Shown piece after piece: positions 4,676 to 55,808 of a stretch of 64,000 nucleotides of DNA. The position numbers and the translations under genes are program-made. Numbering within the stretch: position 1 is the stretch's first letter; every line of letters begins with the position of its first letter. Below the pieces are notes generated by a model. That model was not told the DNA's origin. It worked only from the letters and a program-made list of their open reading frames with translations, and did not search any database. Source of the DNA: an uncultured Candidatus Saccharibacteria bacterium. Its GTDB lineage: Bacteria > Patescibacteriota > Minisyncoccia > Phycocordibacterales > Phycocordibacteraceae. Location of the stretch: assembly GCA_964398865.1 (NCBI GenBank), contig CAYNOO010000002.1, forward strand, positions 3,588 to 67,587. The letters run 5' to 3'.

Positions 4676-6198
4676 TTTTTCTCTTTCTTTTTCAACGTAG
4701 CGCGTATGTAGCGACGCGCCGATGCGGTTTTTGCATACTCGAGCCATTTTTTGTTTGGTGTACCTATCTTTTTAGTCTGTATCTCAACAATGTCTCCCTT
4801 ATGAAGTTCCGTGTCGAGCCCCACTAACTTACCGTTCACTTTTGCACCCGACAATAAATCTACGAGATTGGTGTGCACTGCGTACGCAAAGTCTATCGGT
4901 GTTGCCGTTATTGGCAGGTCGATGACATCTCCTTTTGGTGTGAAGACGAACATCCGTTTCGCGAAAAAGTCTTCGCGGAGTGCCTCCTGAAATGCTTGCT
5001 CTCCTTGAAATTCTTCAGCCGCGCTATTGAGGTCCGTGAGCCAGCGCGGTGTCGGCGCAGTCGCCGGCGTAGCGTCTGTTTTCTGCCCGCGTGCCATTTT
5101 CATTAGTGATGGCACGAAGCGCCATGCCCAAGGGACTTTCAGGGCATTTTCAGCACCCTTATGGTGGTTCTTGTAGATGAAGTGAGCTGCGACTCCGAAT
5201 TTGCTTTCTCGCTGCATCTCTTCTGAGCGAATCTGTATCTCGATGATGAGCTTGTGCGGCGTAATGATGGTGGTGTGAAGTGTACGGTAGCCATTGGGTT
5301 TTGGGCTCGCGATGTAATCCTTGATGCGTCCGGGAATCGGTCGCCAGATATTATGGATGACACCAAACGCTCTGTAGCAGTCTTCCATTGTTGGCACGAT
5401 GATACGTATTGCGAAGATGTCGTACACTTTGTCTGGATCGTTGTCTTTTCTGATGAGCTTTGTTGCGAAGCTATGAACATTCTTTACGCGCGCTTCCGTA
5501 CGGAATTTTCGTATGCCCGCCTCGGCAAGTGCTTTTCGAAGGTCATTAAGCGCTCTGTCTAGCGCTTCCTTTTCTGTTTCTCCGCGCTCTTCCAAGAATT
5601 GATGAATCTTCTGGTATCTCTCTGGCTCCAGAGTTTTGAATGCCAAGTCTTCCAGTTGTGCCTTGATGAGACCGATGCCAAGCCGCTCCGCGATAGGCAC
5701 GTATACCTCTTTCGTTTCAAGCGCGATGCGCATTCTCTTTTCGATAGGTTCCACGAAATTAATCGTCTCCATGTTATGCAACCGGTCTGCGAGCTTGATG
5801 ATGATGACGCGGATATCATTTGCCGTTGCGACGAGCAGGCGACGCAAACTCTCGACGTGCCGCTCGACGCCTCGATATTTTAATTTTGAAAGTTTCGTAA
5901 CGCCTTCCACGAGGAATCGCACCGTCGCACCGAATTCTTTTTCTATTTCTTCTATCGTTACAGGAGTATCTTCAACAGTATCGTGGAGAATGCCCGCGAT
6001 TATGGTCTCGCGATCCATTCCTAATTTTGCGAGTGTCACCGCAATAGCTTTCGGATGGATGATATAGGGCTCTCCCGATTTTCGTTTCTCATCTCCGTGC
6101 GCGCGCTTAGCAAATTCATACGCTCCCTGGATAGCTTTCTGGTCTTCCGAGGAAGGCGATTGCATCGCGCGTACTATGTCGTCGGTAGGATGAGGCAT
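4672..6198 (-). CDS. relA: bifunctional (p)ppGpp synthetase/hydrolase (RelA/SpoT family)
   Basis: HD-domain motif HDTVEDT, a RelA/SpoT synthetase core and TGS/ACT-like C-terminus. 508 aa. The stop overlaps the parB stop by 4 nt, so the two genes converge. Confidence 0.9.
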   Translation of the reverse strand: MPHPTDDIVRAMQSPSSEDQKAIQGAYEFAKRAHGDEKRKSGEPYIIHPKAIAVTLAKLGMDRETIIAGILHDTVEDTPVTIEEIEKEFGATVRFLVEGVTKLSKLKYRGVERHVESLRRLLVATANDIRVIIIKLADRLHNMETINFVEPIEKRMRIALETKEVYVPIAERLGIGLIKAQLEDLAFKTLEPERYQKIHQFLEERGETEKEALDRALNDLRKALAEAGIRKFRTEARVKNVHSFATKLIRKDNDPDKVYDIFAIRIIVPTMEDCYRAFGVIHNIWRPIPGRIKDYIASPKPNGYRTLHTTIITPHKLIIEIQIRSEEMQRESKFGVAAHFIYKNHHKGAENALKVPWAWRFVPSLMKMARGQKTDATPATAPTPRWLTDLNSAAEEFQGEQAFQEALREDFFAKRMFVFTPKGDVIDLPITATPIDFAYAVHTNLVDLLSGAKVNGKLVGLDTELHKGDIVEIQTKKIGTPNKKWLEYAKTASARRYIRATLKKKEKN

Positions 6199-49639: not shown

Positions 49640-52360
49640 ATGACCACACTGCAGAAAACAAAAAAGAGAAACGGAACTATCGTTGATTTCAATCAGGAAA
49701 AAATCGTTTCTGCAGTCTCTAAGGCATTTTTTGAAGTTCTTCAGGATACGCATAGTGATGAATCACAGGCTATAGGTGAGGCTGTCGCGAGCGCTGTTCG
49801 CCTTCGTTACGCTGGCACGGCTTCCATACCCTCGGTTGAGGAAATTCAGGATCTTGTAGAGCATTCTTTGATGGAGCGCTCATATTTTGATGTCGCGAAG
49901 GCATACATCATCTACCGTTACGAGCACGCAAAGATTCGCGAAGAGAAACAAGAAGAAGTAGTCAAGAAAATCGAAGAGCGCGGACTCTTAATTGTAAAAC
50001 GAAACGGGGAACGCGAAATATTTTCTATCGATCAGATACGCAAGACCATCCAGTTCAGCGTGTTGCCTGAGAATGTGCGTGCAGTCGACATTGACGGCTT
50101 CATTTCTCAAGTGCAACGCGAAGTGTATGACGGCATCTCGACAAAAGAAATTGAGCGCACGCTCATCATGGTTGCGCGCTCGATGATTGAACGCGATCCT
50201 GCATACAATCAGCTCGCTGCGCAACTTCTTTTGAATTCTCTCTACAACGAAGTGCTGCACACCGACGCTATTTCTATTGTGTCCGGAGATTTCGACACGA
50301 CGTACCGCGCTGCATTCGTTAAGAACGTGAAGACTGCGGTGGAATTGAAACAGCTCGATGAGCGAATACTTTCTTTTGATCTTTCAAAGATTGCAGCAGC
50401 ACTTCGACCTGAGCGCGATCGCTTGTTGAAATACATTGGTGTCGCGACTCTCTCTGATCGCTACCTCATTCATAACAAAGAAAACAAGCAGCCTCTCGAG
50501 ACTCCGCAGATGCTCTACATGCGTGTTGCGATGGGAGTTGCATTGAATGAGAAAGAAAACCGCGAAGCATGGGCAATCCGTTTCTACGAGATGCTCTCAA
50601 CCTTGCGCTTCGTTCCTTCAACGCCGACCTTGTTCCACTCCGGCATGCCGCGCGCACAGCTTTCCTCTTGCTACCTCAACACCGTTGAAGATGATTTGGA
50701 CCAGATATTCAAGGTATATGGTGACAATGCGCAGATGTCCAAGTGGGCAGGCGGCATCGGCACTGACTGGACGAACCTTCGCGCTACTGGCGCCTATATA
50801 AAGAAGGCAGGTATTACATCCCAGGGCGTCGTACCGTTCTTGAAGATTGCAAACGACGTTACGGTGGCTATAAACCGCTCTGGTAGGCGCCGCGGAGCCA
50901 CTGCTGTTTACCTTGAGACATGGCACTACGACATTGAAGACTTCTTGGAGCTCCGTAAGAACACGGGAGATGAGAGACGCCGTACGCACGACATGAACAC
51001 GGCGAACTGGATTCCGGACTTGTTTATGAAACGCGTGCGTGAGAACGGCTCGTGGACATTGTTCTCTCCTGATGAGACGCCAGATCTTCACCACATCTAC
51101 GGCAAGAAATTCGAAGAAGCCTACGCTCGTTATGAGAAGCTCGCTGACGAAGGGAAGATAAAACTCTTCAAGAGAATGAAGGCAGGGGATTTGTGGAAGA
51201 AGATGCTTGCGATGCTCTACGAGACGGGACACCCATGGATTACGTTCAAAGATCCCAGCAATATCCGCTCTCCGCAAGACCACGTAGGCGTCATACACAA
51301 CTCAAACCTCTGCACAGAGATTACACTCAACAATTCAAAAGATGAGACTGCTGTCTGCAACTTGGGCTGGGTGAATTTCGCGATGCATGTGACTGGCAGC
51401 GCATTTGATCGAGAGAAAGTGAAAGAAACAGTGACGGTTGGTATGCGCATGCTCGACAATGTGATTGATCTCAACTTCTATCCGACGATTGAAGGAAGAA
51501 ACTCAAACATGCGACATCGACCAGTTGGCTTGGGTGTTGGCGGATTCCAGGATGCGCTCTACCAGCTCAATATCGATTTTGCATCTGAAGCATGCGTGCA
51601 GTTTGCTGATGAGAGTATGGAGATTCTTTCCTACTACTCGATACTCGCATCCACCGATCTTGCGCGCGAAAGGGGGGCGTATGAATCTTTTGCGGGGTCC
51701 AAGTGGGATCGAGGACTCTTGCCCGTCGACACTATCAAGCTTCTTGAAGATGAACGCGGAGAGACGATTGATGTGGCGCGTGACACCAAGCTTGATTGGA
51801 ATGCTATTCGCGACGCGATTAAGAAATACGGTATGCGCAATTCAAACTGCATGGCTATCGCTCCGACAGCCTCTACTTCGAACATTGTCTCAGTCGTTCC
51901 ATCCGTCGAACCTGTCTACAAGAACATCTACGTAGAATCCAACATCAGCGGTGACTTTACGGTGGTGAATCCGTACCTCGTTGAGGACTTGAAAAAACTG
52001 AATCTTTGGAATGATTCGATGTTGAACGAGTTGAAATATCAAGATGGCTCTGTCGGCAAGATTGCAGGCATTCCGCAAGCACTGAAAGATAAATATAAGG
52101 AAACGTTCGAGATAGATATGCGTTGGATAATTCGCGCTGCGGCATATCGCGGAAAGTGGATTGACCAGTCGCAGTCCTTGAACATCTTCTTCCGCGGCTC
52201 GTCAGGTAAGGAGCTTTCCGAGATTTACTTCTATGCATGGGAGATGGGCTTGAAGACGACGTATTACCTCCGCTCGCTCGCTGCAACTCAAGTCGAGAAA
52301 GCGACCGTTTCCACCAAGGAATTCGGCTCCACCACACGCGCGATCAGAATGCAGGCGTAG
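49640..52360 (+). CDS. nrdA: ribonucleoside-diphosphate reductase alpha subunit (class Ia) with an N-terminal ATP-cone
   Basis: An ATP-cone (KRNGTIVDFNQEKI), the RNR large-subunit core and a C-terminal YY (TTYYLRS). The expected CxxC tail is not in this frame. Confidence 0.9.
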   Translation: MTTLQKTKKRNGTIVDFNQEKIVSAVSKAFFEVLQDTHSDESQAIGEAVASAVRLRYAGTASIPSVEEIQDLVEHSLMERSYFDVAKAYIIYRYEHAKIREEKQEEVVKKIEERGLLIVKRNGEREIFSIDQIRKTIQFSVLPENVRAVDIDGFISQVQREVYDGISTKEIERTLIMVARSMIERDPAYNQLAAQLLLNSLYNEVLHTDAISIVSGDFDTTYRAAFVKNVKTAVELKQLDERILSFDLSKIAAALRPERDRLLKYIGVATLSDRYLIHNKENKQPLETPQMLYMRVAMGVALNEKENREAWAIRFYEMLSTLRFVPSTPTLFHSGMPRAQLSSCYLNTVEDDLDQIFKVYGDNAQMSKWAGGIGTDWTNLRATGAYIKKAGITSQGVVPFLKIANDVTVAINRSGRRRGATAVYLETWHYDIEDFLELRKNTGDERRRTHDMNTANWIPDLFMKRVRENGSWTLFSPDETPDLHHIYGKKFEEAYARYEKLADEGKIKLFKRMKAGDLWKKMLAMLYETGHPWITFKDPSNIRSPQDHVGVIHNSNLCTEITLNNSKDETAVCNLGWVNFAMHVTGSAFDREKVKETVTVGMRMLDNVIDLNFYPTIEGRNSNMRHRPVGLGVGGFQDALYQLNIDFASEACVQFADESMEILSYYSILASTDLARERGAYESFAGSKWDRGLLPVDTIKLLEDERGETIDVARDTKLDWNAIRDAIKKYGMRNSNCMAIAPTASTSNIVSVVPSVEPVYKNIYVESNISGDFTVVNPYLVEDLKKLNLWNDSMLNELKYQDGSVGKIAGIPQALKDKYKETFEIDMRWIIRAAAYRGKWIDQSQSLNIFFRGSSGKELSEIYFYAWEMGLKTTYYLRSLAATQVEKATVSTKEFGSTTRAIRMQA

Positions 52361-52374
52361 AGGCTGGAAATGCA

Positions 52375-52509
52375 ATGTCTGCTACAAAGGCTGCACCTGT
52401 AGTTCCAGTGCCGCAAGCAGCTCCGGTTGCTGTTGCTTCAGCTCCCGCGGCACCCCGAACCTATGTCTTGCATCGTGCTCTTGCAGCAGCGTGCGAGTCG
52501 TGTGAGTAA
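52375..52509 (+). CDS. 44-aa Ala/Pro-rich ORF ending ...AAACESCE (RNR R1-type CxxC tail, out of frame with nrdA)
   Basis: Frame 1 stays open across the nrdA stop, back to at least 52237. Confidence 0.3.
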   Translation: MSATKAAPVVPVPQAAPVAVASAPAAPRTYVLHRALAAACESCE

Positions 52510-52608: not shown

Positions 52609-53643
52609 ATGGCAATACAAAGGAACGCAAAACCCGTCGACGTGAACCTCCGTCGCATCATAAATGGTGTCGAAGCGGACGTTATTCAGCTCTATCCTAT
52701 ACGCCATAAGTTTGCGTGGGAGTACTACAACGCGGCAAACTCCAACCACTGGCTTCCGACAGAAATCTCCATGCAGCTCGACATCGAACAGTGGAAGTCG
52801 CCAACCGCTCTGACCTCAGACGAGCGACACGCGTTCGAGACTATTCTCGGGTTCTTTACCACCGCTGACTCAATCGCCGCAAACAATATTGTCATTGGTT
52901 TCTACAAGCATGTCACCAGTCCTGAGGTGCGCATGTATTTGCTTCGCCAGGCATATGAGGAAGCGATTCATACGCATGCGTATCAGTACATCGTGGAGTC
53001 CTTAGGCATGGATGAATCGAAGATATTCAACATGTACCGCGAAGTTGACGCCCTCTACAATAAGGAAGCATTCATTCTCTCGTTTAATGAAGGAATCTTC
53101 GAGAGCAATTTCAAGACCGGCACGTTCGAGGCTGACCAGAAATTCTTAGAGAACTGGTGCGTCTTCTCACTTATCTTGGAGGGTATTTTCTTCTACTCAT
53201 CGTTTGCAGTCATGTTCGGCTTCCAGCGACAGCACAAGCTTACCGGTTCTGCCGAGCAGATTCAGTACATCATGCGCGATGAGTCCATGCACTTGAACTT
53301 CGGCTTGGAAATCATCAATGCTATTCGCGAAGAGAATCCGGAATTGTGGACCAAAAGCTTTCAGGATCGCATCATCGAACTCGTACACCAGGCAGTGAAA
53401 TTGGAATACACCTACGCGAAGGACGTCTTTCCGACAGGAATTTTCGGCTTGAACGCGGACGGCTTCAAGGAATATATTCAATTCATTGCGGACAGAAGAC
53501 TTGAGCGTGTTGGATTGCCTGCGCAGTTCCATTCACAAAACCCATTTCCATGGATGAGCGAGGCGATTGACTTGGCTAAGAAAAAGAATTTCTTCGAAAC
53601 GAGAGTGACGGAATACAAAACAGGCGGAGCCCTCAACTGGTAA
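52609..53643 (+). CDS. nrdB: ribonucleoside-diphosphate reductase beta subunit (class Ia)
   Basis: Ferritin-like di-iron motifs (YEEAIHTHAY, ESMHLNF). Confidence 0.9.
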   Translation: MAIQRNAKPVDVNLRRIINGVEADVIQLYPIRHKFAWEYYNAANSNHWLPTEISMQLDIEQWKSPTALTSDERHAFETILGFFTTADSIAANNIVIGFYKHVTSPEVRMYLLRQAYEEAIHTHAYQYIVESLGMDESKIFNMYREVDALYNKEAFILSFNEGIFESNFKTGTFEADQKFLENWCVFSLILEGIFFYSSFAVMFGFQRQHKLTGSAEQIQYIMRDESMHLNFGLEIINAIREENPELWTKSFQDRIIELVHQAVKLEYTYAKDVFPTGIFGLNADGFKEYIQFIADRRLERVGLPAQFHSQNPFPWMSEAIDLAKKKNFFETRVTEYKTGGALNW

Positions 53644-53855
53644 GAGGTCGCTCGCACCCATTATTCGGGAAACGCTCGGCTTCTCCTGCGGAAGCCTCGC
53701 TCGTCCTCGACCGAACTCTGCTTCGCAGACCAAGCAGTTCGGTCTGCGAATGTTCGCGAATAATGGATACTCGCTTTTAAGTGAAAGGAGGCGCGTGGTA
53801 GGCGGATGTTTGTTTGTAGTCCATAGGTATTAAAGTGGAAATAAAACCTTGACAG

Positions 53856-54266
53856 GTGTTTGTTTTATGCTTTTATGTTTGTGTGGATCAAATAAAGAGA
53901 TTTGAATATCGTGGATTTGATCCGAAGGAAAAGATCCCTCATGGCACAGAGGATGAAGAATTCGGAATGCCTAAGCATTGGTGCGCTATCTGTAAGGATT
54001 GGATAGTGGGCGATAGGGAATGGCGTAAGCACTTAAAAGTTACTGGACATCGAGAACCAGAAACCACCATGAGACCTACATCAGAAAAAATTACATGGGA
54101 AAGAGCTAAGGTACCGCATCATGGTGCGGTTATGGTGGAGAAGGAGGGTGGCGCGCTGAAGCGATATTGCAGTTTCTGTGAGGAATGGAAGAGCGATGAG
54201 GGATGGCTTGATCACATCAACAAGACAGGTCATCGTACCGTTTTTCCGGATCCGAAAAAGCAGTAA
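53856..54266 (+). CDS. tandem C2H2 (U1/matrin-type-like) zinc-finger protein
   Basis: Two C-x2-C-x12-H-x5-H units (WCAICKDWIVGDREWRKHLKVTGH and YCSFCEEWKSDEGWLDHINKTGH). The true start is probably the Met at 53967. Confidence 0.5.
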   Translation: MFVLCFYVCVDQIKRFEYRGFDPKEKIPHGTEDEEFGMPKHWCAICKDWIVGDREWRKHLKVTGHREPETTMRPTSEKITWERAKVPHHGAVMVEKEGGALKRYCSFCEEWKSDEGWLDHINKTGHRTVFPDPKKQ

Positions 54267-54275
54267 ACAAGAATT

Positions 54276-55808
54276 ATGTCTGATAGTTTTATTACAACCG
54301 CTGCCAAGCGGATTTTGTTTTTGTGGCATACTGGAGAAATGTTTGGGTTTTTGAAAAAGACTGACGCGCCGGTACCGGTCACTCTTTACAACACGCTTTC
54401 AAAGACGAAAGAAGAATTTAAGCCGATAGCTGGCAAAAAGGTGAAGATGTACACCTGCGGACCCACGGTCTACGACTATGCGCATATTGGAAACCTGCGC
54501 GCCTATGTCTTTGCCGATACACTTCGCCGGACGCTTGAATACGCGGGGTATAGCGTGAAGCAAATAATCAATATTACGGACGTGGGGCATCTGGCTCAGG
54601 ATTCGGATGATGGCGAAGATAAGATGACAGCGGCTCTGAAGCGCGAAGGCAAGGAGATGACCTTAGAGAACATGAAAGCTTTAGGGGAAGAGTATGCTGG
54701 GTTCTTCATTGAAGACATGAAGGCACTCAATGTGGAGATGCCGTTTGCATTCCCGCGAGCTTCTGACCATATATCTGAGCAGATTGCTTTCATCTCGAGC
54801 TTGTTTGAAAAGGGTTATGCATACAAGACGTCAGACGGCATGTATTTTGATACTGCAAAATTTCCATCCTACGGAACACTAGGTTTAGCTAATTCGGGTC
54901 GCATCATCTCATCTATAAGTGGGCAGCCAGGGCATGCGCGCGTAGCGGCAAACCCTGAGAAGCACGACCAGCGGGATTTTGCGCTTTGGAAATTCAATAA
55001 AACATTGGGATGGGAAGCGCCATGGGGAAAAGGCTTTCCTGGCTGGCATATTGAGTGCACGGCAATGGCAACGAAGTATCTTGGAAAGAGTTTTGACGTG
55101 CATACGGGCGGTATTGACCACATAGCGATTCATCACAACAATGAAATTGCTCAGGCTGAAGCGGTGTCAGGAAAACAGTATGTGAAATATTGGATGCATG
55201 GTGAATTCATCACGATTGAAGGAAAGCGTATTGGCAAATCTGAAGGGAATGCAATTCGCCTGTATCAGCTTCGCGAACGCGACGTGAGTCCAATGGCATA
55301 CAGATATCTACTGCTCACCGCGCATTATCGTTCGCTCTTGAATTTTACCTGGGAAGCAATTTCTGCCGCGCAGACCGCACTTCAAAGAGCGCAACGCGTG
55401 TTTGCAGATTTGCCCCTCGGCGGTCGTGTTTTGCCCACCTATCGTGCAAAATTTGAAGCCGCTATCAATGATGACCTTAATACGCCAGCGGCGATTGCGG
55501 TCCTATGGGAGCTGATCCGCGATGAATCGATAACCCCGGCAGATAAGCGGAAAACGATACTCGATTTTGACCGTGTTTTGGCTTTAGGGTTCGGCAGTGA
55601 TTTGCAATCAGAAGGTGCAAAACTTTCTGTCACTGAATTCTCTGATTTACCACCTGATATAGCATCCCTCGTCAAAGAGCGCGAAGAGGCAAGGAAAGCT
55701 AAAAATTGGGCACGAGCTGATGAATTACGGTTATCTTTAGAGGAACAGGGATTTGTCCTTGAAGATGGCACGGACGGTCCTATAGTCAGAAATACCCGAG
55801 AGGGCTAG
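54276..55808 (+). CDS. cysS: cysteinyl-tRNA synthetase
   Basis: MYTCGPTVYDYAHIGN HIGH-region, KMSKS-like KSEGN, an anticodon-binding domain and a DALR-like C-terminus. The start may be the internal Met at 54339. Confidence 0.9.
   Translation: MSDSFITTAAKRILFLWHTGEMFGFLKKTDAPVPVTLYNTLSKTKEEFKPIAGKKVKMYTCGPTVYDYAHIGNLRAYVFADTLRRTLEYAGYSVKQIINITDVGHLAQDSDDGEDKMTAALKREGKEMTLENMKALGEEYAGFFIEDMKALNVEMPFAFPRASDHISEQIAFISSLFEKGYAYKTSDGMYFDTAKFPSYGTLGLANSGRIISSISGQPGHARVAANPEKHDQRDFALWKFNKTLGWEAPWGKGFPGWHIECTAMATKYLGKSFDVHTGGIDHIAIHHNNEIAQAEAVSGKQYVKYWMHGEFITIEGKRIGKSEGNAIRLYQLRERDVSPMAYRYLLLTAHYRSLLNFTWEAISAAQTALQRAQRVFADLPLGGRVLPTYRAKFEAAINDDLNTPAAIAVLWELIRDESITPADKRKTILDFDRVLALGFGSDLQSEGAKLSVTEFSDLPPDIASLVKEREEARKAKNWARADELRLSLEEQGFVLEDGTDGPIVRNTREG

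Follow-up and report, generated by a model that had tools for sequence, protein, structure and literature searches.

What is a pair of zinc fingers that resemble those of eukaryotic RNA-binding proteins doing in the genome of an ultra-small bacterium? The question is raised by a short open reading frame (ORF) between nrdB and cysS in a 64,000-nucleotide (nt) stretch of patescibacterial DNA (contig CAYNOO010000002.1 of assembly GCA_964398865.1, positions 3,588 to 67,587), referred to here as the window. C2H2 fingers with an H-x5-H ligand pair are a hallmark of eukaryotic RNA-binding proteins that serve the spliceosome, ribosome biogenesis and double-stranded RNA (dsRNA) binding. To our knowledge, bacteria are usually regarded as lacking C2H2 fingers, with Ros/MucR as the exception. 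We find that the ORF is a selected gene. From its sequence, we place the product among C2H2 fingers as a new variant, found in bacteria, whose resemblance is to the U1/JAZ fingers that bind RNA in eukaryotes.

The ORF exists where an earlier note on this DNA had placed it, between nrdB and cysS, and it holds two Cys2-His2 units (Table 1). A search of all six frames of the window (~128,000 codons) for C-x2-C-x11-13-H-x5-H returned two matches, both in this ORF. The two-finger pattern is well beyond chance. The earlier note had given both units an x12 spacing and a KTGHR end. Finger 1 does have x12, but finger 2 has x11, and KTGHR closes only the second unit while the first ends in VTGHR, the common motif being TGHR. 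In the orthologue P0002 the spacings are x13/x5 and x11/x5, and the shorter forms described below have x11/x5. The putative ligands of both units follow the order and spacing of classical C2H2 fingers.

A word-indexed search of 5.8 billion proteins returned nothing beyond the protein itself. When 1.84 billion representatives were searched exhaustively with phmmer, a single true orthologue emerged, P0002 (124 amino acids (aa), 56% identity, E 1.8e-36), which lies between nrdB and cysS on a soil-metagenome contig, along with one weak match, P0003. Orthologues with a single module, called at 57-65 aa, were found by tblastn on the loci of relatives together with two profile searches. They comprise an ORF at 5744-5923 of locus L003, P0004 (L083-85 and L087), P0005 (L086), P0006, P0007 (L089) and P0008 (L088). 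The only annotation of P0005 is as a hypothetical protein from Parcubacteria bacterium Greene0714_7. Eight orthologues are intact, and each one with examined flanks (all except P0006, on a 1.6-kb contig) sits between nrdB and cysS. The order nrdA, nrdB, zinc finger, cysS, FKBP, tgt is common to the orthologue loci.

Selection on the coding sequence was evident. Among the one-module genes the ratio of nonsynonymous to synonymous substitution (dN/dS, Nei-Gojobori) was 0.11-0.25, with Fisher p values of 3e-3 to 1e-11 for the excess of synonymous change. The two-module pair, the window and L082, gave nonsynonymous and synonymous proportions (pN and pS) of 0.26 and 0.74, the latter saturated. Since the orthologues are conserved and dN/dS is low, the ORF is a real protein-coding gene under purifying selection. 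The earlier note had named lack of conservation among the findings that would count against it, and the orthologues are instead intact and selected. Between the same two genomes nrdB and cysS share 95% and 91% amino-acid identity, and the zinc-finger gene evolves faster.

No member of the family was found outside one narrow Paceibacterota clade. More distant cysS loci showed no match to the gene, a protein-alignment search of 2.9 million viral contigs found no relative, and a scan of metagenome contigs returned only the contig that carries the already known P0004. Within the clade the gene can be lost. In L004 a deletion of ~85 nt has taken out the promoter together with the 5' half of the gene, and a mutation has struck the first Cys codon; what is left is the 3' half with the terminator. 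L002 lacks the gene, and its pocket is filled by two orphan ORFs on the minus strand. As a pseudogene in L004 and missing from L002, the gene is dispensable over short evolutionary distances. Recent horizontal transfer was also considered and lacks compositional support, as the gene's G+C content of 45.8% is not anomalous beside the 48.5% of the window.

Alignment of the two halves of the two-module proteins with the one-module proteins revealed a repeated unit of ~57 residues, K-x2-E-...-P-x4-5-(H)HG-x12-14-C-x2-C-x8-10-W-x2-H-x5-H. The residues H, G, C, C, W, H and H are invariant across the seven aligned modules, the Trp standing three residues ahead of the first ligand His. The four ligands (C, C, H, H) are also present in three orthologues found later. 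P0007 reads YHQG at the HG motif, so the His beside the Gly is not strictly required. Module 2 is the closer of the two modules to the one-module orthologues (41-43% identity). Two modules occur in the window and in one relative only, and most relatives have one. Counted from the promoter-proximal start, the one-module form is 54-59 aa long with an isoelectric point (pI) of ~9. A search upstream of the one-module genes for a remnant of finger 1 was negative; the one-module form is a complete unit and not a truncated two-finger gene. From these alignments, the window protein is the product of an in-frame tandem duplication that copied the whole ancestral one-module gene. The duplication predates the split between the window and L082, because L082 shares the two-module form.

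The predicted structures repeat this division. For module 2, the single-module AlphaFold2 model has strands at residues 17-20, 27-31 and 36-39 and a helix at 40-50, with a core pLDDT (predicted local distance difference test) of 81-91. Strands 27-31 and 36-39 flank the Cys pair (C31, C34), H46 lies within the helix and H52 just past it. Module 1 was modelled with strands at 17-19, 23-26, 29-34 and 39-42 and a helix at 44-54 (pLDDT ~80-84). In the full-length model (pLDDT ~80-87) both modules keep the single-module pattern, and the N-terminus, linker and C-terminus are predicted to be disordered. Each modelled module therefore consists of an extra N-terminal strand, a Cys-bearing beta-hairpin and a helix that carries the first His, with the second His beyond its C-terminal end. 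As modelled, each module has the classical C2H2 arrangement of a Cys hairpin followed by a His helix (beta-beta-alpha).

To which class of finger does this module belong? No Pfam family matched at its gathering score. The sub-threshold Pfam matches were almost all to C2H2-type families, led by zf-C2H2_2 (Rei1/ZNF622 type; E 7.6e-4, 20.1 bits against a gathering score of 26.9), the OTU1 C-terminal zinc finger (E 1.3e-3) and zf-U1 (15.6 bits for the window protein and 19.5 bits for P0002, E 8.5e-4, against 22). A hidden Markov model comparison with zf-met, zf-U1 and zf-C2H2_jaz, proposed in the earlier note, thus gave a divided result. Sub-threshold matches to zf-U1 and zf-C2H2_jaz (10.8-12.4 bits against 22.6) were obtained, but zf-met had no match at E<=10 and none of the three reached its gathering score. 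NCBIfam searches returned no family. Against PHROGs nothing meaningful was found (best E 0.003, no matched stretch passing alone), and PADLOC gave noise-level matches (E at least 0.003).

Profile searches of PDB sequences were topped by eukaryotic U1/matrin-type RNA-binding fingers, namely Bud20 (E 0.021), ZMAT2, ZNF622 and PRP9, at E 0.02-1.7, none of them significant; the ZNF622 profile match spans both fingers (E 0.025). P0003 was the sole match from outside the family among the 1.84 billion representatives (E 5e-5). This eukaryote-type protein combines a caspase domain with seven zf-C2H2_jaz fingers that Pfam confirms (whole-protein E 1.5e-24). Aligned by hhalign with the eight C2H2 repeats of P0003, a comparator taken as the best prior match, the module profile scored a probability of 95% and a pairwise E of 2.6e-8 over 28 columns that include all ligands and the aromatic position. 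The reading of the fingers as U1-, matrin- or JAZ-type accordingly survives in part: the only outside similarity is to these eukaryotic fingers, but formal membership of the U1, matrin or JAZ family is not established by these scores.

Other assignments fitted less well. No common bacterial zinc-ribbon family, the alternative that the earlier note had set against its own proposal, matches the protein. A four-Cys zinc ribbon of the NrdR N-terminal or DksA-like kind was rejected, as each module has one CxxC and two His and NCBIfam gave no match. An NrdH/glutaredoxin-like redoxin was rejected on the absence of a Pfam or NCBIfam match and on the predicted beta-beta-alpha fold, which is not thioredoxin-like. 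A Ros/MucR finger was rejected as well: it differs in spacing and fold, and the family is missing from the Pfam matches at E<=10 and E<=1.

The likeness to U1/matrin/JAZ fingers (zf-U1 PF06220, zf-met PF12874, zf-C2H2_jaz PF12171, zf-C2H2_2 PF12756; for example U1C, ZMAT2, Bud20, ZNF622/Rei1 and ZNF346/JAZ) lies in the C-x2-C-x11-13-H-x5-H spacing, the aromatic residue three positions before the first His and the predicted beta-beta-alpha fold. ZNF622, like the two-module form, has two fingers joined by a long linker. The differences are as plain. The host is a bacterium of the Patescibacteria, scores stay below threshold and zf-met is unmatched. The extra N-terminal strand carries a nearly invariant HG motif, and the Gly of the H-x5-H loop stands at position 5 in this family (HLKVTGH) and at position 3 in U1/matrin/JAZ fingers (HxxGKKH). 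The whole protein is just one or two modules with no further domain, and RNA binding is a possibility raised by analogy.

Small C2H2 proteins are also found elsewhere in the prokaryotic world. Ros/MucR proteins have the spacing C-x2-C-x9-H-x3-4-H and a ~58-residue fold with a second helix. They share with the present family a bacterial Cys2-His2 site set in a domain that exceeds the eukaryotic finger, with one finger per protein as in the ancestral form here, but they are widespread in Alphaproteobacteria whereas this family is confined to one Paceibacterota clade. The Ros/MucR prokaryotic zinc finger has been reviewed (PMC9779718). AFV1p06, whose family belongs to archaeal viruses, is likewise a small protein with one eukaryote-like C2H2 finger, a structural extension and disordered tails; it binds GC-rich DNA, and its extension is C-terminal to the finger whereas the added strand here is N-terminal (PMC3541406). 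The AFV1p06 paper reports no bacterial homologue (PMC3541406), and AFV1p06 was absent among the sequence matches in our PDB profile searches. A small nucleic-acid-binding C2H2 protein bound to the archaeal 70S ribosome (PDB 6skg chain Bo; 9qf5 chain Bk) gave a match that was not significant, with no detectable sequence similarity. It differs in being archaeal, 43 residues long and without the N-terminal extension.

The upstream region shows how the gene may be expressed. A sigma-70-like motif, TTGACA, 16 nt ending in TGn and TTTTAT, is kept in all six zinc-finger loci for which the upstream region is available (the window, L082, L083, L086, L088 and L089), while the rest of the intergenic DNA around it aligns poorly. 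The start codon, ATG in five loci and GTG in the window, lies 6-7 nt past the -10 hexamer in all six. On this short distance we suggest that the mRNA is probably leaderless. The reading frame of an ATG embedded in TTTTATG varies, matching that of the ORF at some loci but not in the window or L082, which indicates that the motif is conserved as DNA and not as coding sequence. A strict consensus promoter scanner did not call the motif, because the -10 hexamer lacks A at position 2. P0002 aligns from residue 10 of the 136-aa ORF, its initial MDQ opposite VDQ, so the true start is probably GTG 53883, giving 127 aa and not 136. GTG 53856 falls inside the spacer of the promoter-like motif, and a start there is probably an over-extension. 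Downstream, hairpins with a T-run analogous to the terminator-like hairpin of the window stand behind the orthologues in L086, L088 and L003; in L082 none was called after the gene. In L003 a deletion has fused the gene directly to the end of nrdB, without a promoter of its own.

Based on these results, we tentatively propose, with confidence a little short of even, that the gene encodes a zinc-stabilised micro-protein that binds double-stranded or otherwise structured RNA through its helix and basic flank. RNA binding is proposed because the H-x5-H U1/matrin/JAZ fingers are the only finger class that the module resembles and because the one-module forms are basic (pI 8.6-9.6). The product would be a small cytoplasmic protein, in the window made of two copies of the ~57-residue module. 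In each, the extra N-terminal beta-strand would pack against a classical beta-beta-alpha finger and one Zn2+ would be held by Cys-x2-Cys and His-x5-His. The gene would act as an autonomous unit, with its own terminator and its own promoter from which transcription would begin at or next to the start codon. Candidate ligands would be rRNA, tRNA or a structured transcript, and the two-module form could clamp two helical segments.

Several points weigh against this proposal. The two-module proteins are near neutral (pI 7.1-7.7). All similarity to U1 and JAZ fingers lies under curated thresholds and is dominated by the four ligand positions, the hhalign comparison carries a selection bias through its choice of comparator, and fold searches gave no significant match. 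The putative promoter is deduced from conservation and nothing else, and a leaderless GTG start such as that of the window is inefficient in model bacteria. The dispensability seen in L004 and L002 argues against a core function.

Among the alternatives, a DNA-binding transcription regulator acting in the manner of Ros/MucR or AFV1p06 on its own gene, nrdAB or cysS is unlikely, if still worth serious consideration. The fixed position between nrdB and cysS in every genome with the gene and the basic character of the one-module forms would suit such a role. So would a module that exceeds a bare finger through an extra strand, as in Ros; AFV1p06, with its C-terminal extension, binds DNA (PMC3541406). 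The H-x5-H spacing and the best profile matches, however, indicate the RNA-binding class and not a TFIIIA-type or Ros-type finger, and no Ros/MucR Pfam match was found. Moreover, nrdAB and cysS are intact and in unchanged order in L002 and L004, where the gene has been lost.

A stronger version of the RNA-binding proposal holds that the protein is a true homologue of the eukaryotic U1/matrin/JAZ dsRNA-binding finger, encoded by a leaderless micro-gene as a dedicated RNA-binding factor, and is either an ancient relic or the product of cross-domain transfer. We consider this quite unlikely. Its ligand could be, for example, the neighbouring three-way-junction element described below, rRNA or tRNA.

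It is distinctly unlikely that the gene is just carried along in a variable pocket, as dispensable cargo or as what remains of earlier insertions, with no benefit to the host. The mosaic nrdB-cysS pocket with its other orphan ORFs, the duplicated nrdB 3'-end remnant in L082 and the loss or decay of the gene in L002 and L004 are what such a passenger would lead one to expect. Purifying selection is nevertheless clear in every pairwise comparison, and conservation extends to the promoter and the terminator. The surroundings hold no transposase, integrase or phage gene, and the searches of viral contigs and PHROGs reported above gave no relative and no meaningful match.

A role as a zinc-dependent adaptor between proteins, or as a buffer or chaperone of zinc for a neighbouring enzyme such as cysteinyl-tRNA synthetase (CysRS), is very unlikely. 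CysRS is a zinc enzyme, the gene always adjoins cysS, the proteins are rich in His (4-9 per protein across the family) and the OTU1 C-terminal finger is among the sub-threshold Pfam matches. Yet no similarity to known metallochaperones was found, the ligand set is that of a structural C2H2 site and not a labile one, and cysS is intact and in place in relatives without the gene. A regulatory leader of cysS, whose translation would sense Cys-tRNA and control the downstream terminator, deserves almost no credence: the ORF does lie directly upstream of cysS, contains Cys codons and has a terminator-like hairpin between it and cysS, but its 57-127 codons hold only 2-4 dispersed Cys codons, unlike known leader peptides, selection extends along the whole module, a folded domain is predicted, and a minus-strand gene intervenes before cysS in L083 and L087.

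The earlier note had also described a long upstream region with a structured RNA of the gene's own. A structured element is indeed present downstream of nrdB and covaries strongly, but it is not the gene's own and lies outside its transcription unit. It forms a three-way junction in which CCATTATTCGGGAA/TTCGCGAATAATGG make the closing stem, GGCTTCTCCTGCGGAAGCC one hairpin and ACCGAACT...AGTTCGGT a compound one, with an invariant core of GAAAC / TTCGTCCTC / ACCAAGC / CTGCGAATGTT. Covariation was assessed by RNAalifold and pair counting on six sequences. Of the cells, 93% were paired against 35-51% in slid controls, and compensatory double changes occurred in 26 of 42 pairs against 3-7 in the slid controls. 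None of 500 shuffles reached the observed values on four of five measures, and 8/500 did so on the count of further pair types. In one helix all nine pairs covary, and the G-U pairs favour the + strand. Rfam scans of the window, L009 and L086 at E<=10 gave nothing near any gathering score.

The window has a single copy of the element. L002 carries the element without the zinc-finger gene, and L003 and L082 carry the gene without the element, so the two occur independently. Since the promoter abuts the start codon, the element lies upstream of the zinc-finger transcription unit and not inside it. In L009, from a distant Paceibacterota genome, convergent rpmA and rplI flank the element, and its closing stem of 19 bp is perfect. 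Matches to the RNA-core pattern in viral contigs, 74 in number, were dismissed as chance, as nhmmer showed that they match the pattern alone. The element behaves like a component of gene 3' ends, and it may be either a hairpin element of such ends or a structured RNA not yet described. This covarying RNA element without an Rfam match may equal or exceed the zinc finger in interest.

Table 1. Coordinates of the zinc-finger gene, its parts and the neighbouring features (positions in the window unless a locus is named)
Feature	Position	Strand	Details
ORF as first called	53856-54266	+	136 aa from GTG
Zinc-finger gene, probable true start	53883..54266	+	GTG 53883; 127 aa; stop TAA 54264-54266
Module 1	53883..54068	+	aa 1-62; N-terminal strand region with HG motif, plus finger 1
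Finger 1, C-x2-C-x12-H-x5-H	53982-54050	+	CAICKDWIVGDREWRKHLKVTGH; tail VTGHR
Module 2	54078..54263	+	aa 66-127; PHHG motif plus finger 2
Finger 2, C-x2-C-x11-H-x5-H	54168-54233	+	CSFCEEWKSDEGWLDHINKTGH; tail KTGHR
Sigma-70-like promoter motif	53849..53876	+	-35 TTGACA 53849-53854; 16-nt spacer ending TGc (extended -10); -10 TTTTAT 53871-53876
Terminator-like hairpin	54298..54321	+	CCGCTGCCAAGCGG then ATTTTGTTTT; between zinc-finger stop and cysS start
nrdB	52609-53643		neighbour 5' of the zinc-finger gene
Three-way-junction element	53656..53768	+	directly 3' of nrdB; ~115 nt; neighbour, not part of the zinc-finger gene
cysS	54339..55808	+	downstream neighbour; likely start ATG 54339 (MFGFLKK...)
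Element in L002	~4812-4948
Element in L086	~5558-5694
Element in L088	~5803-5938
Element in L089	~1229-1364
Element in L083	5730-5964
Element in L009	3166-3296

The genes around the zinc finger run nrdA, nrdB, zinc finger, cysS, FKBP-type isomerase and tgt. In the window, cysS probably starts at 54339 rather than 54276, because cysS begins with MFGFLKK in all close relatives; its orthologues are recorded with Pfam tRNA-synt_1e. By cysS (77-78% identity) the nearest genomes are metagenome-assembled genomes of Patescibacteria/Paceibacterota. In nrdA (~52333; ORFs 49640-52360 and 52237-52509) a single base is deleted relative to L002 and L003, with TCCAC-CACACG against TCAACGCATACT. The deletion shifts the frame, so that the conserved C-terminal tail ending in CESCE is coded in another frame and the ORF has 906 aa against 953 in relatives. 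This tail carries the redox-shuttle cysteines. The deletion is either an assembly error or a real frameshift.

The region between nrdB and cysS is modular and mosaic. Orphan minus-strand ORFs occupy it in L002 (4973-5482 and 5549-5890), L087 (5267-5635) and L083 (6279-6629). These ORFs of 113-169 aa have two or three repeats of a ~45-residue motif, PW.D.PL.YY..HYpG.TR..L.k.N..LYn.L...GL.d..P, and they had no Pfam match. In L086 a 64-codon ORF on the + strand (~5720-5915), MAMEKTCSACYGAGGKKCGPCNGMG...CSNCHGVGRIGLCSLCGKK, lies between the RNA element and the zinc-finger promoter. Its DnaJ-type CxxCxGxG repeats match Pfam DnaJ_CXXCXGXG below threshold (E 1.4e-3), and it adds a second small ORF of zinc-binding type to the pocket. 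In L082 a hairpin-rich sequence of ~135 nt (2339-2480) separates the nrdB stop from a second, remnant nrdB 3' end (…TTGAACTGGTAAGAATTTACGG…), which suggests a past insertion or recombination at the junction. In L083, L088, L089, L082 and L004 a separate, conserved terminator-like hairpin, GAATTTACGG-AAA-CCGTAAATTC-TTTCT, and a second hairpin, GGAAGAGAAAG...CTTTCTTTTCC, were noted immediately after the nrdB stop; in some relatives they stand ahead of the three-way-junction element. The window lacks both hairpins, a further sign that the stretch between the two genes is modular and mosaic.

Herein, we describe a conserved, selected, free-standing C2H2 protein of one or two modules in ultra-small bacteria of the candidate phyla radiation (CPR). 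The general biological importance of the family is probably limited, because it is tiny, lineage-restricted and dispensable. If the protein does bind RNA, it would offer this finger class in minimal form as a model and would bear on how the class arose; were it a true homologue, it would be a bacterial example of an otherwise eukaryotic RNA-binding finger class. The family also illustrates how structured micro-proteins of fewer than 60 aa are overlooked in CPR genomes, where they stand as nameless hypotheticals, carry over-extended starts or go uncalled.

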